A stretch of DNA of 64,000 bases from Escherichia coli (GTDB lineage Bacteria > Pseudomonadota > Gammaproteobacteria > Enterobacterales > Enterobacteriaceae). A model generated the notes under the pieces. The model was not told the DNA's origin. It saw only the letters and a program-made list of their open reading frames with translations, and made no database searches. The position numbers and the translations under genes are program-made. Location: the NCBI RefSeq assembly GCF_024502345.1, contig NZ_JALDNN010000001.1. The stretch is one strand, 5' to 3'. Below, piece by piece: positions 33,624 to 51,732 of this stretch; position 1 is the stretch's first letter; each line of letters begins with the position of its first letter.

Positions 33624-34052
33624 ATGTCATCACCCGCTATATTGCAGGGCGGCTATGTGCTGCCTCTCTCCCGGTCGTTCACCCAACTGCTTCTGGATAT
33701 CCTCGCGCAAAAACCGCCTCATCGTCACCCCATCACCGGATTAACCATTAACTTCCGTGACCCTGAATACTCACCGGAAAAGGGCGGCTGGCATCCGGTC
33801 GAAATACGCCTCATCCCTGCCGGAGAAGACTGGCAGCTCGATTACGTCACCGATTTTCACTATGCAGGACATCCATGGCCTGAGCTTGAAAAAGATGTCG
33901 ATGTGAGCTGGACGCAACAATACACGTGGCTTTCCCGTTGTGGCGATATCTCTCATGTCGACGCCCGTGAGTTCTGGTCGCTATGGGAAAGTAACTTTAT
34001 GGCTTACCACGATATGGGGGTTTTCACGGTCCGTACGTTGTGGGAAAGCTGA
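33624..34052 (+). CDS. hypothetical protein (gene 3 of the four-gene cassette)
   Basis: 142-aa ORF from ATG 33624 (MSSPAILQGGYVLPLSRS), 46 bp after gene 2. Confidence 0.55.
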   Translation: MSSPAILQGGYVLPLSRSFTQLLLDILAQKPPHRHPITGLTINFRDPEYSPEKGGWHPVEIRLIPAGEDWQLDYVTDFHYAGHPWPELEKDVDVSWTQQYTWLSRCGDISHVDAREFWSLWESNFMAYHDMGVFTVRTLWES

Positions 34053-34110
34053 GTGTTCACTACGTTTCCCCCGCATCCCCCCTCTCCCCCATAGTAAGGA
34101 ACTGAATGTT

Positions 34111-34575
34111 ATGTACCGGCTTCTGCTGCTTAACTTCGTGGATTCATTTATCGATAACTGCATTCTGTCCTGCGTCGATGAACCGGCTTACGGCGGTATC
34201 GTGCAGTGCGAACTGCTTTTTGGCCTTGCCGCACACAGCGGTATCTATGTGGGTAACGGCGATATTGTTCATCTTGATGGCGATGGAACCGTTATCAAAA
34301 GTAAGGCTAAAGGTTTTCTTGACCGGCTCGATGGCTGGAACTCCGCTATCTCGGTGTATACCGACTGTATGGATTTGACGCCTCAGGGTTGTGCGCGGGC
34401 CGCTGAACGGGCAAAGGCGGCAGTGGGTCAGCGCTATCCTTATAGCCTGCTCGACTTTAACTGCCACCGGTTTACTGCCCGCTGCGTTACCGGCGATTCG
34501 TGCCCTGATATCTGGCTTGCCAGACACCTCGATACATTTCAGAAAGGGGACCGATGGCGCGTATGGCAACGATGA
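34111..34575 (+). CDS. LRAT/HRASLS-like papain-fold enzyme (gene 4 of the four-gene cassette)
   Basis: 154-aa ORF with AAHSGIYVGNGDIVHL (His42, His54) and DFNCHRF (Cys118), matching the LRAT-family His-His-Cys arrangement and NCEHF-type motif. Confidence 0.65.
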   Translation: MYRLLLLNFVDSFIDNCILSCVDEPAYGGIVQCELLFGLAAHSGIYVGNGDIVHLDGDGTVIKSKAKGFLDRLDGWNSAISVYTDCMDLTPQGCARAAERAKAAVGQRYPYSLLDFNCHRFTARCVTGDSCPDIWLARHLDTFQKGDRWRVWQR

Positions 34576-34793
34576 AAGCCAGCCGTTGCAGGCAACGTGT
34601 CACCGGACAGGGAGAACGGCTTATCCGGCTGACCATGGTGCTGTTTTACGGTCAGACAATATCTGTTCGCTACATCATCCGGCAGTTTGACGTGTCTCCC
34701 CGCACAGCAAGACGGGACCTCGCTCAACTGGCCTTTGTGCTGGAATCCGCTGGCCCTCACCTCTGGCGACTGGCTCCCTCGCTGAAACCCTGA
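34554..34793 (+). CDS. small HTH protein or N-terminal fragment of a WYL-type regulator
   Basis: 79-aa ORF with HTH-like segment TISVRYIIRQFDVSPRTARRDLAQL, resembling the N-terminus of the WYL regulator at 36249; overlaps the end of the LRAT-like gene in another frame. Confidence 0.4.
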   Translation: MARMATMKASRCRQRVTGQGERLIRLTMVLFYGQTISVRYIIRQFDVSPRTARRDLAQLAFVLESAGPHLWRLAPSLKP

Positions 34794-34867
34794 CTTTTTT
34801 CTCTGCCGGACATCTCCTGACCACCCCGTATGGCAGGCTGTCTCCGCTTTTCAATCCATAAGGGAAC

Positions 34868-35254
34868 ATGATGAAAATTTCTAAACTGTTAACCGCCACA
34901 CTTCTGCTTTCAGCCTTCAGCCACAGCGCATTTGCCGACGAGCAGGCTGACGCTCAGATGATAACCAACTCGACCTTCTGTGCGATGTACTCCACCCGCC
35001 TGACCCAGACCAGTGACAGCGGCCTTCAGGTAAAAGGCGTCAATCTCAATGCCCGCATCAACGGACCGGTATTCAACAGGGTACTTCAGGTGATGAACAA
35101 AACCTATGGCAGAACCTGGCTCGAATCAAATGCCCGTAACGGCAGCATGACCGCCATGCAGCTTTCGCAGTCGGAGCTGCTTTATAACCCGGAATATGCC
35201 CGGCAGTGCGATGCCTTTGCGGATAAAGTGGAAAAGGAATGGCGCGGAAAGTAA
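34868..35254 (+). CDS. hypothetical secreted protein
   Basis: 128-aa ORF with N-terminal signal peptide MMKISKLLTATLLLSAFSHSAFA; followed by a terminator. Confidence 0.6.
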   Translation: MMKISKLLTATLLLSAFSHSAFADEQADAQMITNSTFCAMYSTRLTQTSDSGLQVKGVNLNARINGPVFNRVLQVMNKTYGRTWLESNARNGSMTAMQLSQSELLYNPEYARQCDAFADKVEKEWRGK

Positions 35255-35287
35255 TCCCGACGCGTTATACCTCCATCCGGTGAACAG

Positions 35288-35314
35288 AAACCTGCTTTCG
35301 GGCAGGTTTTTTTT
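35288..35314 (+). terminator. rho-independent terminator
   Basis: AAACCTGC-TTTCG-GGCAGGTTT hairpin followed by a T run. Confidence 0.8.
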
Positions 35315-35396
35315 ACTTTTTTATTTTTCAGGCGGACAAACCCTGTCCGGGGGCTTCCTTAAACTGTCAGGTCCAATATCTGCAATGAGGTGAAAT

Positions 35397-36146
35397 ATGG
35401 CTACCTACCGACACGACCCTGATCTTGAATTTCTGCGCCACTGCCATCGTGACGATCTGGATTTACTGGTTTCTGTGCTTATCTGCGATCCGAAAGACGG
35501 ACTGGCACGCATCACGGAAACGCTGACCTATGATCCTCAGTATAAAAAACACAAGCCCAACCACCCGCGCTACTGGGATGCCATTGCCGCCGAGGTTCAG
35601 ACGTTTGGGGCGAACAGCTTTGCCACGCTGCTCCGCTGGGGTAAAGGGGTGCTGTACCGGGAAATTCTCACCGATGCCTGCGATAAAATGAAGGTGAACT
35701 ACAACAACAAATCCAGTGTTGAAACCATTGAAATGAATCTGCTGATGAAGATCCTGGAGAAAAGTCTTGAGAAGATGACGCCTGACCAGCTAAAGACCGT
35801 GGCGGAAGAATTGCAGACAGGCTACAGCAACCCCACGCCGGAGTTGCTGACCATGGCAATCCAGGCGGGGATAAAAACATCCGGGTTTGCGGCCTATCAG
35901 ATGGCACTTGTTGTCACAAATGGTGTGGCGAAAGCCCTGTTAGGCAGAGGGCTGACCGTTGCAGGAAATGCCATGCTGACGCGTACCATGGGCGCTTTTG
36001 CCGGTCCCGTGGGCTGGGTGCTCAGTTCTCTCTGGCTGCTGATTGATTTAGCCGGTCCCGCATACCGGGTGACGCTACCATCCTGCATTTTTATTGCCTA
36101 CATGCGCCAGAAGCATCTTTATTCACCTGAGAATACTGACGTTTAG
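35397..36146 (+). CDS. YaaW-like protein (UPF0174/DUF3944 family)
   Basis: 249-aa ORF; N-terminal DLEFLRHC and C-terminal GPVGW...AYRVTLP segments resemble E. coli YaaW as I recall it. Confidence 0.55.
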   Translation: MATYRHDPDLEFLRHCHRDDLDLLVSVLICDPKDGLARITETLTYDPQYKKHKPNHPRYWDAIAAEVQTFGANSFATLLRWGKGVLYREILTDACDKMKVNYNNKSSVETIEMNLLMKILEKSLEKMTPDQLKTVAEELQTGYSNPTPELLTMAIQAGIKTSGFAAYQMALVVTNGVAKALLGRGLTVAGNAMLTRTMGAFAGPVGWVLSSLWLLIDLAGPAYRVTLPSCIFIAYMRQKHLYSPENTDV

Positions 36147-36248
36147 CACTTACATTTAAGGTATTCAGACTTTAAAAAACTTCAGAGGGCGGACAAATCC
36201 TGTCCGCTACTGCTGGCATCATTTCCCGGCTAAATTCGGAAATGATGT

Positions 36249-36962
36249 ATGACGCTGATAACACAAGAAAACGAACATGACAGACTGGCAACCCGCCTTT
36301 CCATCATCCTGAGCCGTTTGTTTCAGGGTGAAAAGCTGCATATCGGGACGCTGGCAGAAGAATTTGGAGTGACGACGCGAACGCTGCGACGGGATTTCAA
36401 CGTCCGTCTGACCTACCTTGATATTGAACAGAGCAACGGCGTGTATCAGCTTGCCTCACATTACTTTCGTCGCCGCACGGAACGGGATATGAAGATACTG
36501 GCGAGGTTGCTGCATCTTGACCGTCTGTTACCCGCGATGGATGCCAAACTACTGAGCCTGATGCTTGACGGGGAACGTCCCTCGCCATACAGGATTATGC
36601 TACCGGAGCCGCGCCAGAAACCCACCCTTTTCGGTGATTTCAGCAGACTGACGCTCGCCATACTTAACCAGACCCAGGTGCGTATCAGAACCGACGAAAA
36701 CGTCAGCCATACCGTTCATCCCTACCGTCTGCTTTGCAGCCATGCGGAGTGGTTTCTTGCCGGATGTACGTCATCGGGCGTGTTCGTTATTTCCCTGTCC
36801 CGAATCAGGCTGGTTGAGGTATTACCGGATACAACGTTTGAGATCGATAACACACTCATTTCGCTGATTGAACAGTCTGACTTTATGGAAGCCTTACCCC
36901 ACATGAACATTATTCATCAGATAATGCATTACGGGAGTAAACAGACGAATAATCGTAATTAA
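36249..36962 (+). CDS. WYL-domain transcriptional regulator (BrxR/CapW-like)
   Basis: 237-aa ORF with N-terminal HTH (HIGTLAEEFGVTTRTLRRDF) and WYL-type motif (HPYRLLCSHAEWFLAGC); sits upstream of restriction genes. Confidence 0.7.
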   Translation: MTLITQENEHDRLATRLSIILSRLFQGEKLHIGTLAEEFGVTTRTLRRDFNVRLTYLDIEQSNGVYQLASHYFRRRTERDMKILARLLHLDRLLPAMDAKLLSLMLDGERPSPYRIMLPEPRQKPTLFGDFSRLTLAILNQTQVRIRTDENVSHTVHPYRLLCSHAEWFLAGCTSSGVFVISLSRIRLVEVLPDTTFEIDNTLISLIEQSDFMEALPHMNIIHQIMHYGSKQTNNRN

Positions 36963-37002
36963 AATCACAACATATTATTAGTGATGATTAAATCACATTA
37001 AC

Positions 37003-37332
37003 ATGATAAGTGAGAAAGTTATGATTATCGATAAAGAATACGCACTTGTAAATGCAACAGCAAGACTTAACACTGACCTGAGGGATTATGAATATGAAAT
37101 AAACAACGCCGCCATCATAACATTTGGCAATGACCTCATTGAGGTAATCGTATATCAGTTCAGCTTTGTCATCAGCATCAGGGCAGAGGGTGAAAAAATA
37201 AAGCACGGCCTACTTGTTAACTTCGGTAAAAATATAGCAAGACAGGTTTCATCACTTTGTGCATCCGCAATGCGAGTCTACCCGAATGAAAAACACAAAC
37301 CGAGCCGTCAGCTTTTCCATTGCATAAATTAG
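37003..37332 (+). CDS. hypothetical protein
   Basis: 109-aa AT-rich ORF between the WYL regulator and the type IV restriction gene; may be non-coding. Confidence 0.3.
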   Translation: MISEKVMIIDKEYALVNATARLNTDLRDYEYEINNAAIITFGNDLIEVIVYQFSFVISIRAEGEKIKHGLLVNFGKNIARQVSSLCASAMRVYPNEKHKPSRQLFHCIN

Positions 37333-37393
37333 TTTGTGCAAAGACTGTACTACCGACACGCAATAAATTAAAATAGGCCAGCTAATATAACAT

Positions 37394-39271
37394 ATGAGGT
37401 TTATGATGGCTGGCCAGTATGAAAAAGCAATAACGATAAAACAAGCGATAGATTCAATTAATTTACGCCACTATCTTCTGCCTGCAATTCAGAGGAAGTT
37501 CGTCTGGAGCAGCAGTCAAATATGTTTGCTGTTTGATTCCATCATGCGAGACTACCCGATAAACTCTTTCATGATGTGGGATATCCGTAGTGCCAGTATT
37601 AAAAATGATTACAAATTCTATGAATTCCTGAAAGAATACTGTCAGCGATTTAATGAAGAAAACCCCTGCGTAGCAACAAATGCTGGATTTCATGATTTCA
37701 AGGCGGTGATTGATGGTCAGCAGCGTCTCACATCATTATATATTGGATTGTGTGGAACGTATGCGTATAAACAGCCCCGGGTGTGGTGGCCTTCGGCACA
37801 GGATGATCGCATCCTGCCGCCCAGAAAGCTTTACGTCGATTTAACAGCGCCACTTAATTCAGACGATGAGCTCATGATGAAGTATAACTTCAGGTTCCTG
37901 ACCGACAAGCAATACGCTGATTCACTTACAGACAACAAGCATCACTGGTTCTGCCTGCACGAAATATTCAAATACGAGCAACATGATTCGCCTGATGATA
38001 TTTTATTTAACGTTGTCGTACCAGAACTCGAAAAAAGAGGACTCATTTCCAGTGAATTTTCCAGAAAAACATTACTGAGACTTTATACAAAAATAAGAAC
38101 TGAGAACATCATCCACTACTTCAATGAGAGTAGTCAGGATATTGACCATGTGCTGGATGTTTTCATACGCACGAACAGCGGGGGGACAAAACTTGAGTTC
38201 TCCGACTTACTGATGTCAATAGCGGTAGCGCACTGGCAGGGTGATTTCAGAAGAGAACTGGATGAACTGACAAAAAACATTTATCAGAATAATGAAATGG
38301 GGTTTTATATTGAAAGAGACTGGTTCTTAAAAACCAGCCTGATGCTTATTGACTCTGACGTCCGGTTCAAAGTAAAAAACTTCACTTCAGAGGAGGTCGG
38401 TAAGATACAACAACAATGGTCTGAAATAAAATCCTGCATCAAGGAGACTTTTATTCTTATCAGGCGATTCGGCATCAATCCACAGTCTTTGATATCTAAA
38501 AATGCAGTCATTCCTGTGGTCTACTGGCTTTACAAAAAGCAAACCAGTGGACATCCATTATATACAACGATTAACCTCCTGAATAAAAACCACAATGAAC
38601 GCTCAGTAATTAGCCAGTGGTTTTACATGGTACTTCTGAAAGGGATCTTTGGAAGCCAGGCAGATGCGCTACTCACGAGTATCAGAGATGTAATGAAAAA
38701 TAGTCTTTCAGATATTCACTTTCCTCTTGAAAAGATTATTGACAGATATAAAGGCTCGAATAAAGACCTCAGATTTGACGACGAATACATCGAAAGCCTT
38801 CTCAATATCAGATATGGCGAAGGTCGTTGCCGCGCACTATTGCATCTTCTGTTCCCTGAAATGAATCCGACCGAGGTGTTTCATATTGATCACCTTCACC
38901 CAAGAAATCACTTCTCAAAGAAATATCTTGAAAAATTAGATTATGTTGCGAACTCACCAGAGAACCTCAGCTTTTATGAAAACCCGGAACACTGGGACAC
39001 CATACCTAATCTTCATTTACTGAATCATTCTCAGAATATAAGTAAACAGGATACTTCCCTGAAACAATGGCTATCTCAGCCATCAAACAACTATTCGCCA
39101 TCAATGCTGTTAGTTTCAGATGAAAATATTGAGTTCAGTCGCTTCCCGGAATTCTACAATGAACGAAGAAACGCCCTGAAGCAAAGACTACTGAATCGGG
39201 TATTTCTTACAACAAAAATAGATTCATCACCATCCACAATCGATACGGATGAAGAAATTCTCACCGACTGA
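37394..39271 (+). CDS. GmrSD-family type IV restriction endonuclease (DUF262 + DUF1524)
   Basis: N-terminal DUF262 hallmark DGQQR (in KAVIDGQQRLTSLYIG) and C-terminal His-Me finger-like HIDHLHPRNH; likely start at ATG 37406 after GAGG. Confidence 0.8.
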   Translation: MRFMMAGQYEKAITIKQAIDSINLRHYLLPAIQRKFVWSSSQICLLFDSIMRDYPINSFMMWDIRSASIKNDYKFYEFLKEYCQRFNEENPCVATNAGFHDFKAVIDGQQRLTSLYIGLCGTYAYKQPRVWWPSAQDDRILPPRKLYVDLTAPLNSDDELMMKYNFRFLTDKQYADSLTDNKHHWFCLHEIFKYEQHDSPDDILFNVVVPELEKRGLISSEFSRKTLLRLYTKIRTENIIHYFNESSQDIDHVLDVFIRTNSGGTKLEFSDLLMSIAVAHWQGDFRRELDELTKNIYQNNEMGFYIERDWFLKTSLMLIDSDVRFKVKNFTSEEVGKIQQQWSEIKSCIKETFILIRRFGINPQSLISKNAVIPVVYWLYKKQTSGHPLYTTINLLNKNHNERSVISQWFYMVLLKGIFGSQADALLTSIRDVMKNSLSDIHFPLEKIIDRYKGSNKDLRFDDEYIESLLNIRYGEGRCRALLHLLFPEMNPTEVFHIDHLHPRNHFSKKYLEKLDYVANSPENLSFYENPEHWDTIPNLHLLNHSQNISKQDTSLKQWLSQPSNNYSPSMLLVSDENIEFSRFPEFYNERRNALKQRLLNRVFLTTKIDSSPSTIDTDEEILTD

Positions 39272-39474
39272 ACGTTCAGCCCCGATAGTATTGGGGCTTC
39301 AGTATTTATCATCAGCGCAACGTTTCTACTGGCCTGGCTGAAAGAGCATTGGCTACACAACCGGGCAAACGAACTCTCAGTGCAACGTATGACATACAAA
39401 GCCTGTCATCAATATGAAATTGCGATAAAATCGGGCCAATAACAGTACTTAAGAATCATACAACAGGATACAAA

Positions 39475-41031
39475 ATGACAAGCCTTCAGCAGCGTGCAGA
39501 GCTACACCGTCAAATCTGGGCCATTGCCAATGATGTCAGAGGCTCCGTAGATGGGTGGGATTTTAAACAGTATGTACTCGGTGCACTTTTCTACCGCTTC
39601 ATCAGTGAGAATTTTTCCAGCTACATGGAAGCAGGGGATGAGAGCATACATTATGCAGCACTTGATGACAGCATCATTACCGATGACATCAAAGACGATG
39701 CCATCAGGACTAAAGGCTATTTCATCTACCCGAGCCAGCTGTTCTGCAACGTTGCCGCTAAAGCGAACACCAACGACAGGCTGAATGCTGATTTAAACAG
39801 TATCTTCGTCGCTATAGAAAGCTCTGCCTACGGCTACCCGTCAGAGGCCGACATCAAAGGCCTGTTCGCCGATTTCGATACGACCAGCAATCGACTGGGG
39901 AACACAGTTAAAGACAAAAACAGCCGTCTTGCCGCGGTTCTGAAAGGGGTTGAAGGGTTAAAACTTGGTGACTTCAACGAACATCAGATTGACCTGTTCG
40001 GTGATGCCTATGAGTTCCTGATTTCTAACTATGCCGCAAATGCCGGTAAGTCAGGCGGTGAGTTCTTTACACCGCAGCACGTCTCCAAGCTGATTGCACA
40101 ACTGGCTATGCACGGGCAGACCAGCGTTAACAAAATCTACGACCCGGCAGCGGGTTCCGGCTCACTGTTGTTGCAGGCGAAAAAACAGTTTGATAACCAC
40201 ATCATCGAAGAAGGCTTTTTCGGTCAGGAAATCAACCATACGACCTATAACCTGGCGCGTATGAACATGTTTTTGCACAATATCAACTACGACAAGTTTG
40301 ATATCAAGCTGGGTAATACACTGACTGAGCCGCACTTCAGAGATGAAAAACCGTTTGACGCCATCGTATCTAATCCACCGTATTCGGTGAAATGGATTGG
40401 CAGCGATGACCCGACGCTGATTAACGATGAACGTTTTGCCCCGGCTGGCGTTCTGGCCCCCAAATCCAAAGCTGACTTTGCGTTTGTATTACATGCACTG
40501 AACTATCTTTCTGCCAAAGGTCGTGCTGCGATTGTCTGCTTCCCGGGTATTTTTTACCGTGGCGGCGCAGAGCAGAAAATCCGTCAATATCTGGTCGACA
40601 ATAACTATGTCGAAACCGTGATTTCACTGGCACCGAACCTGTTCTTTGGCACCACCATTGCCGTCAATATTCTGGTGCTGTCTAAACATAAAACGGATAC
40701 CAAAGTTCAGTTTATTGATGCCAGCGAATTATTCAAAAAAGAGACTAACAACAATATCCTGACCGATGCCCATATCGAACAGATTATGCAGGTATTTGCC
40801 AGCAAGGAAGATGTTGCTCATCTGGCGAAATCTGTCGCGTTTGAGACCGTTGTCGCTAATGACTATAACCTGTCGGTGAGCTGCTATGTAGAAGCGAAAG
40901 ATAACCGCGAAATTATCAATATTGCTGAGCTAAATGCAGAGCTTAAAACTACGGTTAGCAAAATCGACCAGTTGCGTAAAGATATTGATGCGATTGTGGC
41001 TGAAATTGAAGGCTGCGAGGTGCAGAAATGA
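39475..41031 (+). CDS. hsdM: type I restriction-modification system methyltransferase subunit
   Basis: 518-aa ORF with SAM-binding [11 protein letters not shown] and catalytic NPPY (IVSNPPYS) motifs. Confidence 0.9.
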
Positions 41032-42200
41032 GCGAGTTGAGTTATCTGGAAAAATTGCTGGATGGGGTTGAGGTTGAGTGGAAATCATTGGGAGATGTTG
41101 TAAATTTTCAGCGCGGAAGGCGGCTCGTAAAATCTCAGTTAGAAACCAGAGGTAAATATGCGGTTTACCAAAACAGCATGACACCACTCGGTTACTATCA
41201 TGAGTATAATGTCGCAGCTCAATCTTCGTTCATTATCTGTGCGGGTGCAGCCGGTGAAATTGGTTATAGCGAAAATGAATTTTGGGCTGCCGACGATGTT
41301 CATTTCGCAATCACACCAGAATATATAAATGACAGGTTTTTGTTTCATTTTTTGTTGACGCAAAAGAATAAAATTTCAGGACAAGTACGCCGTGCCAGTA
41401 TTCCGCGTCTCTCAAAGTCAGTAATTGAAAAACTTGAATTCCCCATCCCCTGCCCGGATAATCCGGAAAAGTCCCTTGCCATCCAGTCTGAAATCGTTCG
41501 GATTCTGGATAAATTTACTGCACTTACCGCTGAGCTTACCGCTGAGCTTAACATGCGTAAAAAACAGTACAACTACTATCGCGACCAGTTGCTGAGTTTT
41601 GATGAGGGTGAGGTTGAGTGGAAGGCTTTGGAGGAAGTCTCAACTTTTGCTAATGGAAAGGGGCATGAAAAAGACATATCAGAAGACGGTAAATATATTG
41701 TTGTAAACTCTAAGTTTATATCTACCAATGGCGAAGTCGCCAAGTTATCAAACAAACAGCTATGCCCTCTTTTTAAAGACGATATTCTTTTGGTTATGAG
41801 TGACCTGCCCAATGGCAAAGCACTTTCAAAAACATTTATTGTTGATGAAGATCATAAATACACTTTAAACCAACGTATTGGTGGAATTACAGTAAAAAAC
41901 AGTAATGAATTACTCCCTAAGTTTTTGCACTATTTTTTAAATAGAACCCCGCAATTGCTGAAACATGACAATGGTGTTGATCAAACAAATTTGCGTAAAG
42001 GTCAAATACTTGAAGTAAAAATACCAATAATTTCACTCATCAAACAAGTTCAGATCGTTGAAACTCTTGATAAATTCGATACTTACACTAAGTCGATTTC
42101 AGAAGGCCTCCCGCGCGAAATCGAGCTGCGCCATAAACAGTACGAGTACTATCGTGATTTATTGTTCAGCTTCCCGAGACCAGAAACCGCCAGCAACTGA
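41028..42200 (+). CDS. hsdS: type I restriction-modification system specificity subunit
   Basis: 390-aa ORF with two target-recognition halves and repeated conserved segments (EVEWKSL...[15 protein letters not shown]; EVEWKAL...[15 protein letters not shown]); start overlaps the hsdM stop. Confidence 0.9.
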
Positions 42201-42316
42201 CGGACCATTGATACCGGCAGGGTTTGTTCTCACCCGCCCGGTATCAGGCTTTAAGAATGCCGGAAGATGCTTCTGATACCCTTCCGGAATTTGCCAGATG
42301 ACGCACAGGATGCACC

Positions 42317-45300
42317 ATGACACAACAGATACACACCATTGCTGAATCCAATAACTTTATCGTCCTTGATAAATACACCAAAGTTCTGGAGAACGGCGAC
42401 AGCTACCAGAGCGAATCGGATCTTGAGCGGGAACTGATTCAGGACCTTCTGAATCAGGGCTATGAATTTATATCCGTTAAGTCACCGACAGCGATGCTGG
42501 CGAATGCACGGGACCAGCTTCAGCATCTTAATGGTGTGGTGTTTAACGAAAGTGAATGGCGGCGCTTCGCAGAGCAGTATCTGGACAGCCCCAGTGACAG
42601 CAGCCTGGACAAAACTCGTAAAATCCATATCGACTATATCTGTGATTTCACGTTTGATGACGGTCGTCTGGAAAACATCTATCTGATAGATAAAAAGAAC
42701 CTGCTGCGCAATAAGGTGCAGGTCATTCAGCAGTTTGAACAGACCGGCTCACACGCTAACCGTTATGACGTCACCATTCTGGTTAACGGCCTGCCACTGG
42801 TGCAAATCGAACTCAAAAAGCGCGGCGTGGCTATTCGTGAAGCCTTTAACCAGATACACCGTTACAGCAAGGAAAGCTTTAACAGCGACAACTCCCTGTT
42901 TAAATACCTGCAACTGTTTGTGATATCTAACGGAACCGATACCCGGTACTTTGCCAGTACCACTAAGCGGGATAAAAACAGCTTTGATTTCACCATGAAC
43001 TGGGCGAAGTCGGATAACACTCTGATTAAGGACCTGAAGGACTTTACCGCCACCTTCTTCCAGAAACATACCCTGCTGAATGTTCTGTTTAATTACAGCG
43101 TGTTTGACAGCAGCCAGACTCTGCTCGTCATGCGCCCCTATCAGATTGCCGCCACTGAGCGAATCCTCTGGAAAATTAACAGCTCATTTAAAGCGAAGAA
43201 TTGGTCAAAACCCGAAAGCGGCGGGTTTATCTGGCATACCACCGGGTCAGGCAAAACCCTGACCAGTTTTAAGGCTGCACGACTGGCAACCGAACTGGAC
43301 TTTATAGACAAAGTCTTCTTCGTGGTCGACAGAAAAGACCTTGATTACCAGACAATGAAGGAGTATCAGCGCTTTTCTCCGGACAGCGTCAACGGTTCGG
43401 ATAATACAGCAGGCCTCAGAAGAAACCTGGATAAGGACGATAACAAAATCATCGTCACAACCATTCAGAAACTCAATAACCTGATGAAAGCCGAAGCTGA
43501 CCTGCCCGTCTATCAGCAGCAGGTAGTGTTTATCTTTGATGAGTGTCACCGCAGCCAGTTTGGTGAGGCCCAGAAAAACCTCAAAAAGAAATTCAGACGC
43601 TTTTATCAGTTTGGTTTTACCGGTACGCCTATTTTCCCGGAAAATGCACTGGGGGCAGAAACCACAACCAGCGTGTTCGGGCGTGAGTTACATTCTTACG
43701 TCATTACTGATGCGATTCGTGATGAAAAAGTACTGAAGTTTAAGGTGGACTATAACGATGTCCGCCCACAGTTTAAGTCTCTTGAAACGGAAACAGACGA
43801 GAAAAAACTCAGCGCGGCTGAAAACCAACAGGCATTTTTGCACCCCCTGCGTATCCAGGAAATAACGCAATACATTCTCAATAACTTCCGGCAGAAAACA
43901 CACCGAACCTTCCCGGGAGCTAAGGGCTTTAACGCCATGTTAGCAGTTAGCAGCGTGGACGCGGCGAAAGCTTATTACACGACGTTTAAAATGCTACAGG
44001 AAGAAGCAGAGAAGAAATCTGGCAGCTATAAATGCCTTCGGGTGGCAACCATCTTCTCCTTTGCTGCAAATGAAGAGCAAAGCGCCATTGGTGATATTAC
44101 TGACGAAAGCTTTGATACCAGTGCAATGAACAGCAGCGCGAAGGAATTCCTGGATTCAGCCATTGATGACTATAACAATCACTTTAAAACCAATTTCAGC
44201 ACCGACAGTAACGGTTTCCAGAACTACTACCGCAATTTAGCTCAACGAGTGAAAAATCAGGATATTGACCTTCTCATCGTGGTGGGAATGTTCTTGACTG
44301 GCTTTGATGCCCCGACGCTTAACACTCTTTTCGTTGACAAAAACCTCCGTTATCACGGCCTGATGCAGGCATTTTCCCGCACAAACCGTATCTATGATGC
44401 CACCAAAACCTTCGGCAATATCGTGACTTTCAGGGATCTGGAGCGTCCGACCATTGATGCCATCACACTATTTGGCGACAAAAACACCAAGAATGTGGTG
44501 CTGGAAAAAAGCTACGAAGAGTACATGCAGGGCTTTACCGATGCGGCAACCGGTGAGGCTAAACGAGGTTTTATGGCTGTTGTTTCGGAGCTGGAGCAGC
44601 GCTTCCCTGACCCTGCCAGTATCGACAGTGAAAAAGAGAAAAAAGCCTTCGTCAAACTGTTTGGTGAATATCTGCGGGCAGAAAACATCCTGCAAAACTA
44701 TGATGAATTTGCCACGCTGAAAGCCCTGCAGAAGGTTGATATTAGTGACCCGGAAGCGGTAGAAACCTTTAAAGCAGAGCACTATGTGGATGATGAAAAA
44801 TTTGCTGAATTACAAACCATTCGTCTCCCGGCAGAACGTAAAGTTCAGGACTATCGCTCAGCATACAATGATATCCGGGACTGGCAGCGACGCGAAAAAG
44901 CATCAAACGACAGGGATAAATCAACCACAGACTGGGATGACGTGGTGTTTGAAATTGACCTGCTGAAGTCGCAGGAAATTAACCTGGATTACATCCTTGG
45001 TCTGATTTTCGACCACAATCGTCAGAAAAAAGGTAAAGAAGCCCTGACTGAAGAGGTCAGACGCTTAATCCGCTCAAGTCTGGGCAACCGTGCCAAAGAA
45101 GGTCTGATTGTTGACTTTATTCAGCAAACTAACCTTGATGACATGCCGGACAAGGCCAGTATCATTGATGCATTCTTTACCTATGCTCAGCGTGAACAGC
45201 AACGGGAAGCAGAGGCGTTGATTAAGGAAGAAAACCTCAATGAAGAGGCTGCAAGGCGCTATATCCGCACATCACTAAAACGGGAGTATGCCACCGAAAA

Positions 45301-45433
45301 TGGGACGGAGCTAAATGAGACGCTACCAAAGCTCAGTCCGCTGAATCCTCAGTACAAAACGAAAAAGCAGACTGTATTCCAGAAAATTGGGGCATTTATC
45401 GAAAAATTTAAAGGGGTTGGAGGACACCTCTAG
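42317..45433 (+). CDS. hsdR: type I restriction enzyme R subunit (helicase/endonuclease)
   Basis: 1038-aa ORF with helicase motifs RPYQ, TGSGKT and DECH (IFDECHRSQ). Confidence 0.9.
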
Positions 45434-45654
45434 ATGTCAGATAAAAGAACAATGCGCTACCGCAATTTATGGGTAAGATTGTATCTTTTAACCTGCATCA
45501 GACCTGTTATGATCGATGAGGCGCTGGTTAATGTTAATGCTAACTGGATGAGTTTTAATCGCTGATTCAGACAATTAGCGTCCAGAACTCACAGAAACCA
45601 GTGCTTGATTTTGGATGGTAAAGTGCTGAACGGACGTATCACAGGAGAATGCTT

Positions 45655-45993
45655 ATGAGCGTAACTATAAAAGACGATCGACTCCGTACCATCGCTACCT
45701 TTGACGGTAAAACCCTGAAAGACGACCGGCTCAGGACCATCGCAACGTTTGACGGTAAAACCCTGAAAGACGACCGGCTCAGAACCATCTCAACTTTTGA
45801 CGGTAAAACCCTGAAAGACGACCGACTCCGCACCATCGCTACCTTTGATGGCAAGACCCTGAAAGACGATCGACTCCGCACCATCGCAACATTTGATGGT
45901 AAAACACTTAAAGACGATCGACTCAGAACCATCGCGACAGTTAATGGTAATGTTAGTATTGTTGTTTTGGCGTTTGCTGCTCGGCTATTTTAG
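45655..45993 (+). CDS. hypothetical tandem-repeat protein
   Basis: ORF after AGGAGA with five full and one partial 16-aa repeats (DDRLRTIATFDGKTLK), encoded by 48-bp tandem DNA repeats; could instead be a non-coding minisatellite. Confidence 0.4.
   Translation: MSVTIKDDRLRTIATFDGKTLKDDRLRTIATFDGKTLKDDRLRTISTFDGKTLKDDRLRTIATFDGKTLKDDRLRTIATFDGKTLKDDRLRTIATVNGNVSIVVLAFAARLF
45667..45960. repeat. 48-bp tandem repeat array, about six copies
   Basis: Near-identical units AAAGACGAYCGRCTCMGNACCATCGCNACNTTTGAYGGYAARACCCTG repeated head to tail. Confidence 0.85.
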
Positions 45994-46270
45994 GGCTAAG
46001 AGCCTATCTCAACAGAGATTAATACTTTACCCAAAAGATATAATATCAGTATCTAAAAGCCTGCACCGTCTGATTTTTAGTCATTGAATCGCGAGAACGG
46101 GAGATAATTTCTCTTCTATGGGTATAGGCTCATAATGGTAGGATTCTGGTAGCTTCGAAACGCCGTATTTAAGCAATACTTAAGTCATGAAGAACCAAAC
46201 TTAAACATTTTTCTCAAGGTAAACCAGTAAAAAACTGTTAGTGCTGATGGATCGTTTGGGCTCTTTTAAA

Positions 46271-46319
46271 GGGATTGAAAATCCCCGTGTCCTTGGTTCG
46301 ATTCCGAGTCCGGGCACCA
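46271..46319 (+). repeat. 49-bp direct repeat of the tRNA-Phe 3-prime end (island junction, att-site core)
   Basis: GGGATTGAAAATCCCCGTGTCCTTGGTTCGATTCCGAGTCCGGGCACCA is identical to tRNA-Phe positions 20172..20220. Confidence 0.95.
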
Positions 46320-46333
46320 AATTCATATCAACG

Positions 46334-46358
46334 GACCTCCACGGAGGTCCGTTTTTCG
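46334..46358 (+). terminator. hairpin terminator after the partial tRNA copy
   Basis: GGACCTCC-ACG-GAGGTCCG followed by TTTTTCGTTT. Confidence 0.7.
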
Positions 46359-46516
46359 TTTCAGAACGCCACAATTTAAGCGTTCTGCCTCCAAATCAAT
46401 TCTACCGAACTCAACCAGATTCCCCCCACATCAACCCCATTGTGTGGGTATAATTGCGGGTATACCCCAGTTCGACAGAATTTGTACCCTCTTTAACGCA
46501 TTCAGAAGGCTGAACT

Positions 46517-47782
46517 ATGGCACTGACTGACGCAAAAATCCGGGCTGCAAAGCCCACTGACAAGGCTTATAAACTCACTGACGGGGCCGGCATGTTCCTG
46601 CTGGTTCATCCTAATGGTTCCCGTTACTGGCGTCTCCGTTATCGTATTCTGGGTAAGGAGAAAACCCTGGCACTTGGTGTGTATCCGGAAGTTTCTCTCT
46701 CCGAAGCTCGTACAAAACGGGATGAGGCCCGAAAACTGATTTCGGAGGGGGTTGACCCTTGCGAACAGAAAAGAGCTAAAAAAGTAGTCCCTGATTTACA
46801 ACTCTCTTTTGAACATATTGCACGACGCTGGCATGCCAGTAATAAACAATGGGCACAATCACACAGCGATAAAGTACTCAAAAGCCTCGAGACACACGTT
46901 TTCCCCTTTATCGGCAACCGGGATATCACAACACTCAGTACCCCGGACCTGCTTATCCCTGTTCGTGCTGCAGAAGCTAAACAAATTTATGAAATCGCCA
47001 GTCGTCTGCAGCAAAGAATATCTGCTGTAATGCGTTATGCCGTACAGTCTGGCATCATCAGATATAACCCGGCTCTGGATATGGCTGGTGCATTGACCAC
47101 GGTAAAACGCCAGCATCGCCCTGCTCTGGATCTTTCACGCCTGCCTGAACTTCTGTCGCGTATTGACGGTTATAAAGGCCAGCCTGTCACCCGACTGGCA
47201 GTTATGCTGAATTTACTGGTTTTTATTCGTTCCAGTGAACTCAGATATGCCCGCTGGTCTGAAATTGATATTGACAATGCCATGTGGACTATTCCAGCCG
47301 AACGCGAACCTCTGCCAGGCGTAAAATTTTCATACCGGGGCTCCAAGATGCGAACACCACATCTTGTGCCACTCAGCCAACAGGCTGTAGCCATACTGGC
47401 AGAACTTCAGACATGGGCAGGTGAAAATGGTCTGATCTTTACGGGAGCACATGACCCACGTAAACCAATCAGTGAAAACACCGTAAATAAAGCCCTGAGG
47501 GTTATGGGGTATGACACAACCCAGGATGTCTGTGGTCATGGATTCCGGGCGATGGCATGTAGTGCATTAATAGAATCAGGTTTGTGGTCCCGCGATGCTG
47601 TGGAACGCCAGATGAGCCATCAGGAGCGTAATGGTGTACGTGCTGCGTATATCCATAAAGCCGAACATCTGGAAGAACGTCGACTTATGCTACAGTGGTG
47701 GGCCGATTTTCTGGATGCAAACAGAGAAAGATTTATCAGTCCATTTGAATATGCAAAGATTAATAATCCATTAAAACAATAA
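46517..47782 (+). CDS. P4-type tyrosine integrase
   Basis: 421-aa ORF MALTDAKIRAAKPTDKAYKLTDGAGMFLLVHPNGSRYWRLRYR (P4-like arm-binding N-terminus) and catalytic HGFRAMA...RAAYIH; 197 bp after the tRNA-derived repeat. Confidence 0.9.
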   Translation: MALTDAKIRAAKPTDKAYKLTDGAGMFLLVHPNGSRYWRLRYRILGKEKTLALGVYPEVSLSEARTKRDEARKLISEGVDPCEQKRAKKVVPDLQLSFEHIARRWHASNKQWAQSHSDKVLKSLETHVFPFIGNRDITTLSTPDLLIPVRAAEAKQIYEIASRLQQRISAVMRYAVQSGIIRYNPALDMAGALTTVKRQHRPALDLSRLPELLSRIDGYKGQPVTRLAVMLNLLVFIRSSELRYARWSEIDIDNAMWTIPAEREPLPGVKFSYRGSKMRTPHLVPLSQQAVAILAELQTWAGENGLIFTGAHDPRKPISENTVNKALRVMGYDTTQDVCGHGFRAMACSALIESGLWSRDAVERQMSHQERNGVRAAYIHKAEHLEERRLMLQWWADFLDANRERFISPFEYAKINNPLKQ

Positions 47783-48103
47783 TCCTCCCGGGAAAATGCC
47801 CGGGAACCACCCGGGGATTATTTTTTGTTAAAAAAGGCAAAACGATATTAACTGATGTATTAAATGTTTACCGGATTGCTCCCTGCAGGTGGATTATCAG
47901 AATCCGCAGTTATTCGTTATTTATATATATTCAATAAAAAGAAACATCATAAAAAATCCCGCACCCACAGGGTGATGCGGGATAACTGACGTAAGGAATG
48001 CTGCCGGGATTTGGTGGTCCCTTGTGCTGATATGAATACAGGTTCTATTCTATACAGAATCCTTTTCAGTACAAGAGACTGTATTACAGTTTGCCATATA
48101 TGA

Positions 48104-49603
48104 TTACCTGTGGTCCGGAAGAATAAGTGGCTGCGGTTTCAGACTGTCTGCCGGCACATTTTTCTCTCCGTTAAAAACCATAACGGGTTCATTATCTTCG
48201 TCTGTCAGCGGATTGAATGGCGGTATATTTTCGGTACGAATACCGGTCAGCCACTGAAAAATGCCTGCGAAATTACGGGCACTGATTTTCCTGCTGACGG
48301 ACTGATGAGACGTGATGTCACTGGCGGTAATAATCAGGGGAACGCTGTAGCCCCCCTGCACATGACCATCATGATGAACAGGATTAGCACTGTCGCTGAC
48401 CGACAGCCCATGGTCAGAAAAGTAAAGCATTGCAAAGTGACGGGAATGCCGGCGAAGGATACCATCAAGCTGATCGAGAAAGTTATCCAGTTTACTGATG
48501 CTGGCGAGGTAACAGGCAATCTTTCGGGGATACTGCTCCAGGTAATAATTCGGCCAGGAGTTAAGTCGGTCACACGGATTCGGATGAGAGCCAATCATGT
48601 GCAGGAAAATCACCTTCGGCGAGGATTTATCCGCCAGCGCACGTTCTGTTTCCTGTAACAACAACATGTCATCCGTTTTACGGGAAGCGAAGCTGCCTTT
48701 CTTGAGGAAAACGGTATGCTCCGCATCAGAAGCAATAACAGAGATGCGTGTGTCATGCTCTCCCAGTTTTCCCTGATTGGATATCCACCATGTGCTGTAT
48801 CCTGCTTTTGCTGCCAGCGCCACCACGTTGTTGCCGGAGTCAGGGTTCTGCTCATAGTCATAAATCAGTGTCCGGCTCAGGGAAGGTACGGTACTGGCTG
48901 CTGCCGATGTATAGCCGTCAATAAATAAACCGGGAGCCGTATTCAGCCATGGTGTGGTTGGCACGGGATAGCCATATACCGACATATAATCCCTGCGCAC
49001 ACTCTCACCAGTAACGATAACAATCGTGTCATACAACGGTGTTCCCGGCAGGATTTTCCAGTTGTCAGCCCCGTGCTGACTCAGTTGTTTATAACGCTGC
49101 ATTTCACGCAATGTGTCAGTTGTTCCCACAACAATTCCTTTAACCATCCGCAACGGCCAGCTGTTTACAGAGCATAATACGAACAGCAGCAGTGCCAGCC
49201 AGTTACGGTGACCGCGGTGGTGTGTCCGCCAGAAAATCACCATGAATACCAGAATCGCGGCACTGACCAGAAAATGATAAACAGGAATCATCCCGGTAAA
49301 CTCTGCAGCCTCATCAGCCGTGGTCTGCAGCAACGCGACAATAAAACTGTTGTTGATTTTACCGTACGTCATACCCGCAGGCGCATACAGTGCACAACAG
49401 AACAGAAATAACAGCGTTGTAATGGATGTGAGGGTATTTCTGTGTGCAAGGAGAAGAAGGAGAAACAGAAGCAGCACATTTCCTGTGGCATTCTTCTCAG
49501 TGTATCCGCATGCAATTGTGATTATCACAGAAATAACAAAAAAGAATAAAAACAATAAAATCCGGGGTGTGTCGCCCGGACAAAACAGTTTTCTGATATT
49601 CAT
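48104..49603 (-). CDS. phosphoethanolamine-transferase-like membrane protein (sulfatase family, EptA-like)
   Basis: 499-aa ORF with N-terminal transmembrane region and sulfatase-domain motifs LHMIGSHPNP and YFSDHGLS. Confidence 0.7.
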   Translation of the reverse strand: MNIRKLFCPGDTPRILLFLFFFVISVIITIACGYTEKNATGNVLLLFLLLLLAHRNTLTSITTLLFLFCCALYAPAGMTYGKINNSFIVALLQTTADEAAEFTGMIPVYHFLVSAAILVFMVIFWRTHHRGHRNWLALLLFVLCSVNSWPLRMVKGIVVGTTDTLREMQRYKQLSQHGADNWKILPGTPLYDTIVIVTGESVRRDYMSVYGYPVPTTPWLNTAPGLFIDGYTSAAASTVPSLSRTLIYDYEQNPDSGNNVVALAAKAGYSTWWISNQGKLGEHDTRISVIASDAEHTVFLKKGSFASRKTDDMLLLQETERALADKSSPKVIFLHMIGSHPNPCDRLNSWPNYYLEQYPRKIACYLASISKLDNFLDQLDGILRRHSRHFAMLYFSDHGLSVSDSANPVHHDGHVQGGYSVPLIITASDITSHQSVSRKISARNFAGIFQWLTGIRTENIPPFNPLTDEDNEPVMVFNGEKNVPADSLKPQPLILPDHR

Positions 49604-49762
49604 CGGAGTATATCGACAACATTATTATGAAGAGAACAGGATAATAAAAATCAGAAATTATCTGTAAAACAGATAACAGACAACCCTGCAGTATAATTAC
49701 TGCAGGGTGTTTCCTTTTAATTACAGAAGATAAGTAATTATTATCTTTCAGGAGCAGTTTCG

Positions 49763-50503
49763 TCAGAAGTTATAAGTCACACCAAGCATGATGTCATGAC
49801 TTTTAACATCAACCTCTGATTTATATTTATCGCCCCACTCATCCTTGTAACTCACACTGCTGTCACCTGCATCAATATAGCGATAGCTGAGGTCAAGAGC
49901 GATATCCGGGGTTACGTCATAACGGACACCAGCCCCAAGGCTCCATGCAAAGTTGTCAGCAGAGTCTGAGTGTGACAACGACTCACGCCCACTGTACCCG
50001 TACCCGTAATCCCAAGTACTGATACCAGTTGTTTTCTGATGAATTCTGGCGTAACCAATCCCTGCGGATACCCATGGTGTGAATGCACTGTCGTTCCGGA
50101 AGTCATAGTACGTATTCAGCATCAGAGTGTTGACTGACACTTCATTCTTCAGGTCATCACGCCAGTAACCACCTGACCAGCTGTCTTTATCTACGTTATA
50201 CTTCGAATCAGCTTTTCCACGCGCGTAAAACTCCAGTTCTGTACGAACCGGAATACTGAACTGCGGATAAAAATCATAACCGGCCGCAATACCGCCACTG
50301 AATACCGTATCATGGTCATCGCCGCCTTTATACTTTGACGTTTCTTCCTCATCTCCTGACAGGAAACGCTGGTCTGAAAGTGACACCACAGAGGCACCGG
50401 CTTTACCGGTCAGATAAAAACCGCTTTTACCTTCCTCAGCACCTGCATTTGCTGCAAATACACAGGCTGCGGCCACCACTGAAACAGCAAAAACCTTTTT
50501 CAT
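49763..50503 (-). CDS. outer-membrane beta-barrel protein
   Basis: 246-aa ORF with signal peptide MKKVFAVSVVAAACVFAANAGA, alternating aromatic/hydrophilic strands and C-terminal ...GVTYNF. Confidence 0.7.
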   Translation of the reverse strand: MKKVFAVSVVAAACVFAANAGAEEGKSGFYLTGKAGASVVSLSDQRFLSGDEEETSKYKGGDDHDTVFSGGIAAGYDFYPQFSIPVRTELEFYARGKADSKYNVDKDSWSGGYWRDDLKNEVSVNTLMLNTYYDFRNDSAFTPWVSAGIGYARIHQKTTGISTWDYGYGYSGRESLSHSDSADNFAWSLGAGVRYDVTPDIALDLSYRYIDAGDSSVSYKDEWGDKYKSEVDVKSHDIMLGVTYNF

Positions 50504-50937
50504 TTCAATTATCTCCGTTATTGCTCCGTTGCTGCAAGCAGTACTCAGTGCATTTTAAAACCCGCCATGCGATAGTCTCAATTGAATAAAATCGATCGAA
50601 TCGATAGATGATATCGATCGTCATTAACCAGAAATTTTTATCGTATTCAGTCAGCACAGATACAACAAATGCATGCCATGCAGACAGTCATACCCGGCAA
50701 CAACAGCAGATGGTTGCTGAGCAAGCAGGGAGTGAGGCTGAATCCCGGGGAAGAAAAAACCTGTAAAATTTGTTTATTCTGCCAGGAGATAAAAGTGACG
50801 TGTGTTCATGTAACACACCAGGGACGAAAGATGCATGGACTGACAGTTTGGGGGATATGATGCAACTACAGACCAAAGTGTGAATCAGTATGACCCGGGC
50901 CAGAGTTTGTGCGGTTTCTTTATATAAAAAAGCCCAC

Positions 50938-51374: not shown

Positions 51375-51445
51375 TTACCTGCTCCCCGTTGATTAATACA
51401 CCGTGATGTTAGTAATGTCTTCATAAGCCACATGAGGACATCCCC

Positions 51446-51709: not shown

Positions 51710-51732
51710 CGACAGACCAGAAGCGGGAAGCC

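Follow-up and report, generated by a model that had tools for sequence, protein, structure and literature searches.

Membership of the BrxR family of regulators has been defined by sequence homology at E<1e-5, and the R-BOX of BrxR has been defined experimentally as an inverted repeat with a 5-bp spacer (PMC9122601). The functional motifs of the restriction enzyme BrxU are RLFDS, DGQQR and DHIYP, and BrxU-like genes are frequently associated with type I restriction-modification (R-M) systems (bioRxiv 2024.01.29.577857). The most frequent defence neighbours of jukA, of the Juk (JukA/JukB) anti-jumbo-phage system, are WYL-domain genes and R-M components, and some JukA proteins work alone or with transcription factors (bioRxiv 2022.09.17.508391). 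The regulator YfjR of Escherichia coli K-12 has its own operon as its sole target listed by genomic SELEX (gSELEX; PMC8249747). Relatives of all of these genes are present in a 64,000-nucleotide stretch of E. coli DNA (contig NZ_JALDNN010000001.1, hereafter the window), in which the gene for a WYL-domain regulator is followed on the plus strand by a small open reading frame (ORF), a brxU-like gene and the type I R-M genes hsdM, hsdS and hsdR. These restriction genes are swappable cargo of an integrative island and the WYL regulator is a backbone gene of this island, and we consider it likely that the regulator controls a jukA-containing module and itself, not the restriction genes.

The limits of the island were defined by a perfect 50-bp direct repeat of the 3' end of tRNA-Phe. 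The left copy, attL (20172-20221, plus strand), coincides with the end of the tRNA-Phe gene pheU, which ARAGORN placed at 20145-20220, and the second copy, attR (46271-46320, plus strand), forms the island end. Because the tRNA-Phe 3' end is duplicated at 46271-46320, positions 20222-46320 constitute a 26.1-kb integrative island in E. coli pheU. The adjoining aspA-dcuA-cutA-dsbD-dicD flank is 99.8% identical to E. coli chromosomes, and a hairpin with a run of T residues is located at 46330-46353, just past attR. The restriction array occupies the right-hand, attR end of the island, a context that was overlooked in the original prediction.

To separate backbone from cargo, we compared this island with loci that encode diverged homologues of either the WYL protein (59-75% identity) or the small-ORF product (72-82% identity). 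The related islands have a constant backbone, consisting of an integrase, a DUF927 helicase, a further integrase, a 117-aa gene, a 143-aa gene, DUF2787 and LRAT genes, and then a gene for a helix-turn-helix (HTH) protein of ~79 aa, a ~127-aa gene, a DUF3944 gene, the WYL gene and the small ORF. The backbone order through jukA (the DUF3944 gene), the WYL gene and the small ORF is shared by Edwardsiella tarda, Edwardsiella ictaluri, Hafnia, Morganella and GCA_902706235.1; the order of these last three genes is identical in eight related islands from different genera, and a degraded copy is found in Pectobacterium. The gene directly upstream of the WYL gene belongs to Pfam DUF3944 in every related island that carries the WYL gene. 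The Pantoea island has the same order but lacks jukA and the WYL gene, with the small ORF retained.

Homology between the islands at the DNA level stops immediately past the stop codon of the small ORF. The genes found 3' of this point are hsdMSR alone in E. ictaluri, a DUF6708 gene and an insertion sequence (IS) element in GCA_902706235.1, a type II R-M system with a C5-methyltransferase and its own HTH controller on the opposite strand in Morganella, a pair of 611-aa and 838-aa (AAA) genes, also on the opposite strand, in Hafnia, and other genes in Pantoea. E. tarda also has hsdMSR after the small ORF, and here the WYL gene is separated from the small ORF by two genes, one with a TM2 domain and one of 243 aa. 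As the homology stops past the small ORF, the backbone ends with this ORF and the WYL gene before it, and brxU-hsdMSR is one of many cargos; everything from the small-ORF stop codon to attR is exchangeable. Within E. coli, at least 80% of a 9.6-kb array query (window 36000-45600) was present at ~96% identity in 56 of 5426 RefSeq complete genomes. Part of the jukA-WYL-small ORF-brxU stretch was found in 172 E. coli genomes, 67 of which had at least 80% of it. The PGAP labels in the carriers of the array query are DUF262 or GmrSD, HsdM, HsdS, HsdR and HTH regulator.

The restriction genes are also found without the regulator. The brxU-hsdM junction was detected on at least 223 plasmids at 95-98% identity, with Klebsiella accounting for 261 of the 271 matching records. 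In plasmid p11219-CTXM, DUF262-hsdM-hsdS-hsdR is present without the WYL gene, and the part homologous to the window starts within the small ORF, at 37184. A solitary brxU between IS elements is present in E. coli YY76-1. This shows that brxU-hsdMSR is a four-gene block which moves independently on plasmids. The restriction genes are in this sense ordinary, being a common block of BrxU-like and EcoR124-type genes, already annotated by PGAP and widespread on Klebsiella plasmids. The plasmid and IS-bounded copies of brxU begin at approximately the same point, window 37184-37190 (locus L017, 6284; locus L018, 9001), and this shared start within the small ORF suggests a single ancestral truncation that later spread. 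We also considered this breakpoint as the defined end of a cassette, which was unsupported, the YY76-1 copy being bounded by IS elements.

A candidate operator has a distribution that follows the backbone. Alignment of the jukA-WYL spacers of seven islands revealed an invariant GGACA-N5-TGTCC core within diverged flanks, and one outer pair of the palindrome changes compensatorily, from C-G to T-A. Motif scanning of the window identified an exact palindrome, GGACAAATCCTGTCC, with arms GCGGACA/TGTCCGC, at 36191-36205, centred 51 bp upstream of the WYL ATG, where it is a candidate autoregulatory operator. A second exact copy and candidate operator, GGACAAACCCTGTCC (35334-35348), is centred 56 bp upstream of the jukA ATG, and a variant with one mismatch, GGACATCTCCTGACC (34808-34822), is centred 53 bp upstream of the gene for the 128-aa backbone protein. 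Both exact sites and a GGACA-N5-TGNCC variant were present at equivalent positions in ten of ten related island loci. An exact copy also lies upstream of yfjR in K-12, and the 38%-identical Hafnia homologue of the WYL protein has the GGACA-N5-TGNCC variant upstream of its gene. No half-site, not even a 5-mer, was found in the intergenic regions before the small ORF, brxU, hsdM or hsdR, and the rest of the island, the surroundings of the integrase and DUF927 genes included, contains no full palindrome with up to one mismatch. Most likely, the WYL protein binds these palindromes as a dimer and controls its own gene, jukA and the 128-aa gene. Either sign of regulation would fit the sequence, so that the protein may be a repressor, as are BrxR and CapW, or an activator, as are DriD and PafBC. 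A repressor seems the more probable, released by a WYL-domain ligand such as single-stranded DNA (ssDNA), by analogy with CapW, which would make the WYL protein a ligand-gated autoregulator of the JukA-containing backbone module.

The location of the palindromes also bears on a different explanation, that the WYL protein is a regulator of the element's life cycle which senses DNA damage or ssDNA and switches on excision, replication or transfer, and not defence. Such a role would suit a gene in the backbone of an integrative element that has two recombinases and a replicative-helicase-like DUF927 protein, and the homologue YfjR is encoded in the cryptic element CP4-57, while DriD and PafBC are among the fold matches of the WYL protein. 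However, the palindromes precede the 128-aa gene, jukA and the WYL gene and no other gene, with none near the integrase or DUF927 genes, and we regard a life-cycle role as very unlikely.

The WYL gene (36249-36962, plus strand) encodes a 237-aa regulator with a winged HTH and a WYL domain, of a short, YfjR-like type. Pfam identified HTH_DeoR at residues 16-51 (6.2e-6) and WYL at residues 131-190 (4.6e-4), and the protein matched the PADLOC WYL model at 3.2e-15. Its sequence is 36% identical to that of YfjR from the CP4-57 element of K-12 over the whole length (E=1e-38; 237 versus 233 aa), and a Hafnia homologue with 38% identity to the WYL protein is located at the yfjR position in a CP4-57-like element. 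When the protein was compared by phmmer with all chains in the PDB, those of BrxR and CapW included, at E<=10, no BrxR, CapW, DriD or PafBC was recovered, and the only hit was a marginal one to the SpoIIID HTH. Structure comparison gave a different picture: the AlphaFold2 model (pLDDT 87) has a winged HTH, a linker and a WYL beta-barrel, and the top Foldseek matches were BrxR (7QFZ, E=4.6e-7), CapW, PafBC, DriD and the Acinetobacter BrxR, with E values from 4.6e-7 to 3e-4 for 7QFZ, 7TB5, 9C5G and 7T8K. Past the barrel there are ~45 residues, with predicted helices at 201-207 and 210-235; the matched regulators that bear a WCX domain are 266-327 aa in length, and sequence relatives of ~290-310 aa align to residues ~8-213 of the WYL protein only. 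By sequence and model, the protein belongs to a short branch of the winged HTH-WYL superfamily which has a BrxR-like fold and falls outside BrxR by the sequence criterion of that family. The description of the protein as a BrxR/CapW-like WYL regulator with an N-terminal HTH was right as to domains and fold, and did not hold for sequence homology; the short C-terminus seems to leave little room for a full WCX domain.

In the original prediction, a BrxR/CapW-type repressor stands at the head of brxU-hsdMSR and keeps it silent until infection, and the six genes form one dual-restriction operon. All six ORFs were indeed found on the plus strand at the coordinates given, with no internal stops. They are co-directional with short gaps, BrxR and CapW are the best fold matches of the WYL protein, BrxR-family regulators head mosaic defence islands, often with type IV enzymes (PMC9122601), and the BrxR of pEFER controls a BrxU-containing island. 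Against a single operon, there is neither an operator copy nor a half-site before brxU, hsdM or hsdR; the regulator goes with the backbone and jukA and not with this cargo, which in the Morganella and Hafnia islands is replaced by genes on the opposite strand; the plasmids described above maintain the block stably in the absence of the regulator; and hsdM has a conserved upstream region of its own, behind a terminator-like hairpin. The lack of a sequence match to BrxR or CapW and a C-terminus that seems too short for a full WCX domain also argue against a regulator of this type. Taken together, we think it unlikely that the six genes are one operon under such a repressor. The WYL protein as a dedicated repressor of the restriction module is not supported, because it is a backbone gene, the block persists without it, and no operator precedes the cargo.

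The transcription signals were examined by a terminator scan, folding and a consensus promoter scan. A strong intrinsic terminator was predicted by folding at ~35286-35322, 3' of the 128-aa gene. After brxU, a terminator-like hairpin, AGCCCCGATAgTATTGGGGCT, followed by a weak U tract is located at 39278-39298 on the plus strand (-17.3 kcal/mol, z=-3.2); it was not flagged by the consensus terminator scan, and a hairpin is also present at the equivalent position upstream of the Edwardsiella hsdM. A promoter-like CTGTCA-17-TAAAAT sequence was found upstream of hsdM (39403-39431, plus strand), in a region that is partly conserved with that of the Edwardsiella hsdM and contains the conserved block TGCGATAAAAT. 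The hairpin and the conserved hsdM upstream region fit an autonomous hsdMS unit. Promoter assignments are weak, because the consensus scan found fewer sites than in shuffled sequence. In our model, hsdMS and probably hsdR would use their own promoters, as in EcoR124I, and the WYL protein could affect brxU solely by read-through of the WYL-small ORF transcript.

Several observations weigh against our preferred reading, in which the WYL regulator controls itself and the jukA module and the restriction genes are independent cargo. The terminator scan and folding detected no terminator between the WYL gene, the small ORF and brxU, the gaps between these genes are short, and the consensus scan detected no convincing sigma-70 promoter just upstream of brxU. 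These three features make co-transcription of brxU with the regulator plausible, and transcripts from the WYL promoter may read through the small ORF into brxU. Since BrxR-family regulators head mosaic defence islands, the position of the WYL gene beside the cargo bay could itself be functional. Binding of the palindrome by the WYL protein is also open to other explanations. Chromatin immunoprecipitation with exonuclease treatment (ChIP-exo) saw no DNA binding by K-12 YfjR (PMC8464067), and the palindrome could act as a hairpin instead. In addition, a paralogue of 79 aa (34554-34793), consisting of an HTH only, has a related HTH and may be the binder or a co-binder: its HTH shares 33% identity with that of the WYL protein and is matched by WYL-regulator models in their N-terminal part. 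Finally, the conserved sites are not fully independent, because the related islands form one family. The gene for the 79-aa HTH protein is located just upstream of the first palindrome variant, and its product could compete for or share the operator.

Other inverted repeats were observed in the spacers of the array. At 36217-36247, a perfect 10-nt inverted repeat, CATCATTTCC-N11-GGAAATGATG, ends 2 nt before the WYL start codon, and this repeat together with the palindrome hairpin gave a folding energy of -31 kcal/mol (z=-5). This second hairpin near the WYL start is partly conserved, with the CCGG core only in the other islands, and could occlude the ribosome-binding site. At 37376-37415, the start codons and Shine-Dalgarno sequence of brxU lie between the arms of an inverted repeat, GGCCAGC...GCTGGCC, which may be a translational hairpin. 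The hsdS-hsdR spacer contains nested inverted repeats at 42209-42291, for example TGATACCGGCAGGGT-N8-ACCCGCCCGGTATCA; in other studies, defence genes (DarTG2) were found embedded at the hsdS-hsdR site.

The gene directly upstream of the WYL gene (35397-36146, plus strand), which was missing from the original prediction, encodes a 249-aa protein of the JukA/YaaW family (DUF3944). The match to the PADLOC JukA profile was 3.5e-72 and covered profile positions 4-239 of 245, and PGAP labels the protein as DUF3944 or YaaW family. In Juk, JukA is the sensor and JukB the effector encoded beside it; a profile search of the neighbouring proteins gave no match to JukB. The gene before jukA (34868-35254, plus strand) encodes the 128-aa backbone protein, which has a signal-peptide-like N-terminus and matched no PADLOC, NCBIfam or PHROG family; a gene of 126-128 aa occupies this position in all related islands.

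The last backbone gene is the small ORF, which had been predicted to be a 109-aa ORF at 37003-37332. The gene is real and its length is not as predicted: its homologues and PGAP start at 37021, so that the conserved protein is 103 aa (37021-37332, plus strand). We identified 72 homologues, and all those with a recorded source organism are from the Enterobacterales. Residues Y7, H62, G63, N67, F68, G69, K70, Y87 and H92 are invariant. The alignment used for structure prediction excluded the fragmentary rows P0093 and P0094 and a truncated WYL fragment (L011:9472-9795), and the resulting model (pLDDT 91) has a ferredoxin-like alpha/beta fold that is closest to the TnpA of IS200/IS605 elements, with weak Foldseek support for the TnpA type. 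The HUH motif of IS200/IS605-type transposases lies in the central β-strand. No HUH motif was found in the predicted central β-strand of the small-ORF protein and no catalytic tyrosine pattern was present, and searches of PADLOC, NCBIfam and PHROG gave no family. Binding of nucleic-acid hairpins by this protein is no more than a lead. We also considered RptR, a small repressor of 79 aa and four helices that is associated with type I R-M systems (PMC12255303). This candidate was rejected, as the small-ORF product is a protein of 103 aa with a predicted alpha/beta fold and two fold searches of the PDB gave no RptR-like match.

In another explanation, the four genes from the 128-aa gene through jukA and the WYL gene to the 103-aa ORF would act on their own as a Juk-like system against jumbo phages, and the restriction cargo would be a mere neighbour. 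JukA would then be the sensor, the WYL protein a regulator or a nucleic-acid-sensing partner, and the 103-aa protein with the TnpA fold an effector or DNA-binding accessory. The strong JukA profile match points in this direction, as do the conserved gene order in the eight islands and the degraded Pectobacterium copy, a common palindrome before three of the four genes, the enrichment of WYL genes beside jukA and the JukA proteins that act alone or with transcription factors (bioRxiv 2022.09.17.508391), and the resemblance of the small-ORF fold to Y1 transposases, which bind hairpin DNA. However, no JukB homologue was found, the Pantoea island has the small ORF but neither jukA nor the WYL gene, CP4-57-like elements contain members of the YfjR family with no jukA, and the small-ORF protein has neither the HUH motif nor the catalytic tyrosine pattern, with weak Foldseek support. 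We regard a self-contained Juk-like system as possible, if on balance doubtful.

A broader proposal would combine these elements. YfjR-type WYL regulators and their GGACA-N5-TGTCC operator may form a 'gatekeeper' module at the entrance of the cargo bay in tRNA-integrated islands of the Enterobacterales, in which a ligand, for example phage-generated ssDNA, would induce JukA and, by read-through, cargo in the same orientation. Besides JukA and the regulator, this module would contain an exported protein of 128 aa and a catalytically dead protein with the TnpA fold, which might help to recognise or acquire cargo at the fixed junction. We offer this joint reading as speculation that is improbable in its entirety.

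The first gene of the cargo, brxU (37403-39271, plus strand), encodes a 625-aa type IV restriction enzyme of the BrxU/HEC-05 family of GmrSD enzymes. The ORF opens at 37394, and the probable start is at 37403 or 37406, behind a GAGG Shine-Dalgarno sequence. Pfam identified GmrSD_N (DUF262, PF03235) at residues 16-276 (1.5e-32), and the match to PADLOC HEC-05 was 3.9e-231. In a phmmer comparison with the BrxU structure 7P9K (E=3.5e-99), the proteins were 37% identical over 565 aligned positions, with residues 9-600 of the query aligned to residues 2-575 of BrxU. The protein contains LLFDS at residues 45-49, DGQQR at 107-111 and HIDHLHP at 497-503; DHLHP (499-503) aligns with DHIYP of 7P9K, and NLHLLN...QNISK aligns with NLQLLE...NNQK. 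The prediction of a DUF262/DUF1524 protein was therefore upheld for DUF262 and the motifs. DUF1524 (PF07510) was not called by Pfam in this protein even at E<=10, and so the C-terminal nuclease domain is supported solely by the alignment to BrxU. A lack of catalytic residues had been raised as an objection to a GmrSD-type enzyme; in the alignment to BrxU, LLFDS, DGQQR and DHLHP are kept. By homology, the enzyme would cut DNA with modified cytosine by means of a DUF262 NTPase and a His-Me/HNH nuclease; enzymes of this class depend on hydroxymethylcytosine (hmC) or glucosyl-hmC in their substrate.

The three genes that follow encode a type IC R-M system of the EcoR124 family. The product of hsdM (39475-41031, plus strand) matched TIGR00497 at 645 bits (cutoff 243) and the EcoR124 HsdM 7BST_D at 1133 bits, with NPPY at residue 300, consistent with a type IC methyltransferase. 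The hsdM stop and the hsdS start overlap by 4 nt (41028-41031). HsdS (41028-42200, plus strand) aligns end to end with the HsdS of EcoR124: the N-terminal, central and C-terminal conserved regions match, and the two target-recognition domains (TRDs) diverge. The sequence TAEL occurs twice, at residues 167 and 171, and in EcoR124I and EcoR124II a recognition site with a 6-bp spacer goes with two such repeats. Because both TRDs differ from those of EcoR124, the recognition sequence of this HsdS is predicted to be new; DNA homology between the islands also drops out across both TRDs. The 1038-aa product of hsdR (42317-45433, plus strand), an EcoR124-family restriction and translocase subunit, matched the EcoR124I HsdR 2W00 at 2121 bits over residues 1-1037 and TIGR00348 at 729 bits, and contains GSGKT at residue 310 and DECH at residue 408. 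Pfam identified an EcoR124_C domain in the HsdR homologues of the related islands. HsdS, the WYL protein, the small ORF and the brxU-like protein matched no NCBIfam family.

This analysis bore out the predicted hsdMSR operon in its main points: the NPPY and DECH motifs, the two TRDs and the hsdM-hsdS overlap were found, with matches to EcoR124 for the subunits, and no frameshift or premature stop of the kind that had been raised as a concern interrupts the hsd genes. The core genes pglX, pglZ and brxC of the bacteriophage exclusion (BREX) system were likewise absent as predicted, since no island protein matched a BREX model in PADLOC and hsdR is the longest ORF of the window. By homology, an M2S1 complex would introduce m6A at a bipartite site with a 6-bp spacer, as suggested by the two TAEL repeats and the two novel TRDs, and HsdR would translocate and cleave unmodified DNA. 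The reading of the array as a dual-restriction module holds, also by homology, for a BrxU-type modification-dependent enzyme and a type IC system that together would cover modified and unmodified invaders.

After hsdR, the island contains a gene annotated by PGAP as '5-fold beta-flower protein' (45649-45993, plus strand), an ORF with 48-nt tandem repeats that is retained 3' of hsdR in the E. coli and E. tarda islands. Six 48-nt tandem units at 45615-45998 encode a repeated KDDRLRTIATFDGKTL motif. At the other end of the island, a left cargo bay of low GC content (~0.39) at 21072-25766 lies between attL and the first recombinase. It contains a SIR2 gene (21072-22490; PADLOC SIR2 2.7e-154), which overlaps a HerA gene (22487-24520; 2e-252), and a PD-DExK/NucC-like nuclease gene on the minus strand (24942-25766). 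A sister island likewise has SIR2_2 at this end. The backbone segment at 26084-31251 encodes the DUF927 protein between two tyrosine recombinases. The DUF927 protein is weakly similar to the replicative helicase Cch1 of the staphylococcal cassette chromosome (SCC), with a match of 2.2e-22 that is below the cutoff, and the recombinases and this Cch1-like protein suggest an element able to excise and replicate. The degraded backbone module in Pectobacterium (L011, 8100-10327) consists of genes of 152 and 242 aa, a truncated piece of the WYL gene and the small ORF; it has a chromosomal context, with no integrase within 10 kb and no palindrome.

The DNA beyond the island has features of its own. 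A tandem second island (46517-64000) follows attR and begins with a P4-type integrase gene (46517-47782). It contains a phosphoethanolamine-transferase-like gene, a gene for an Adr-like outer-membrane protein, an IS3-family element with an IS1222 frameshift signal at 51676-51793, and metal-efflux genes for two heavy-metal P-type ATPases, a CueR-like regulator and a cation diffusion facilitator (CDF) transporter. A guanidine-II (mini-ykkC) riboswitch is located in the chromosomal flank (5925-5971, minus strand; 49.3 bits). The riboswitch, the IS1222 frameshift element and tRNA-Phe were the only Rfam matches in the whole window, and at gathering thresholds there were none within 34000-46400.

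The pheU island family, which has a left cargo bay with SIR2-HerA and a right one with restriction genes, offers a tractable model of the exchange of defence cargo. The comparison also carries a more general lesson, in that a regulator which adjoins defence genes need not be the regulator of those genes, and that comparison between islands can separate backbone from cargo. Among the testable by-products are the cargo-bay architecture of this island family and a concrete candidate operator, GGACA-N5-TGTCC, for the YfjR family, which links this family to jukA. The predicted new specificity of HsdS would have a practical bearing on the transformation of strains carrying the island.

The system is a further representative of known kinds, and the association of BrxU with type I R-M systems has already been reported (bioRxiv 2024.01.29.577857). 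Like the Juk system, the locus has a protein with a strong JukA match and shares the association with WYL and R-M genes. It differs from Juk in that no JukB was found and that jukA here is part of the backbone of a mobile island. The WYL protein resembles K-12 YfjR in size, in the GGACA-N5-TGTCC sequence upstream of its gene and in its location inside an integrative element; unlike here, yfjR has yfjQ and ypjK-yfjS-yfjT as neighbours in K-12 and no jukA. With BrxR and CapW (7QFZ, 7T8K, 7TB5, 9C5G), its best fold matches, the WYL protein has in common the order of winged HTH, linker and WYL barrel, and, as with the R-BOX of BrxR, a candidate inverted repeat with a 5-bp spacer lies upstream of its own gene, in a defence-rich island. 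However, it is 237 aa in length as compared with about 265-295 aa, its C-terminus is mostly one long helix, it has no sequence match to these regulators, the candidate operator is absent before the restriction genes, and the WYL gene is tied to the backbone and jukA and not to a particular defence system. Compared with EcoR124I and EcoR124II (2W00, 7BST), the hsdM-hsdS-hsdR order is the same and HsdR and HsdM are nearly identical over their full length; the conserved regions of HsdS match those of EcoR124I, with two TAEL repeats alike. The differences are that both TRDs diverge, the system is chromosomal in the pheU island, and a brxU-like gene precedes hsdM. The 625-aa enzyme, finally, belongs to a separate subclade from BrxU (767 bits for the best HEC-05 sub-model, 433 bits for the next-best) and adjoins a type IC R-M system instead of being embedded in BREX. 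It shares with BrxU of pEFER (7P9K; PADLOC HEC-05) full-length homology, DUF262, the RLFDS-like LLFDS, DGQQR and the DHxxP nuclease motif, and like BrxU it has as its neighbour a methylation-based system against unmodified DNA, with the same complementary logic.

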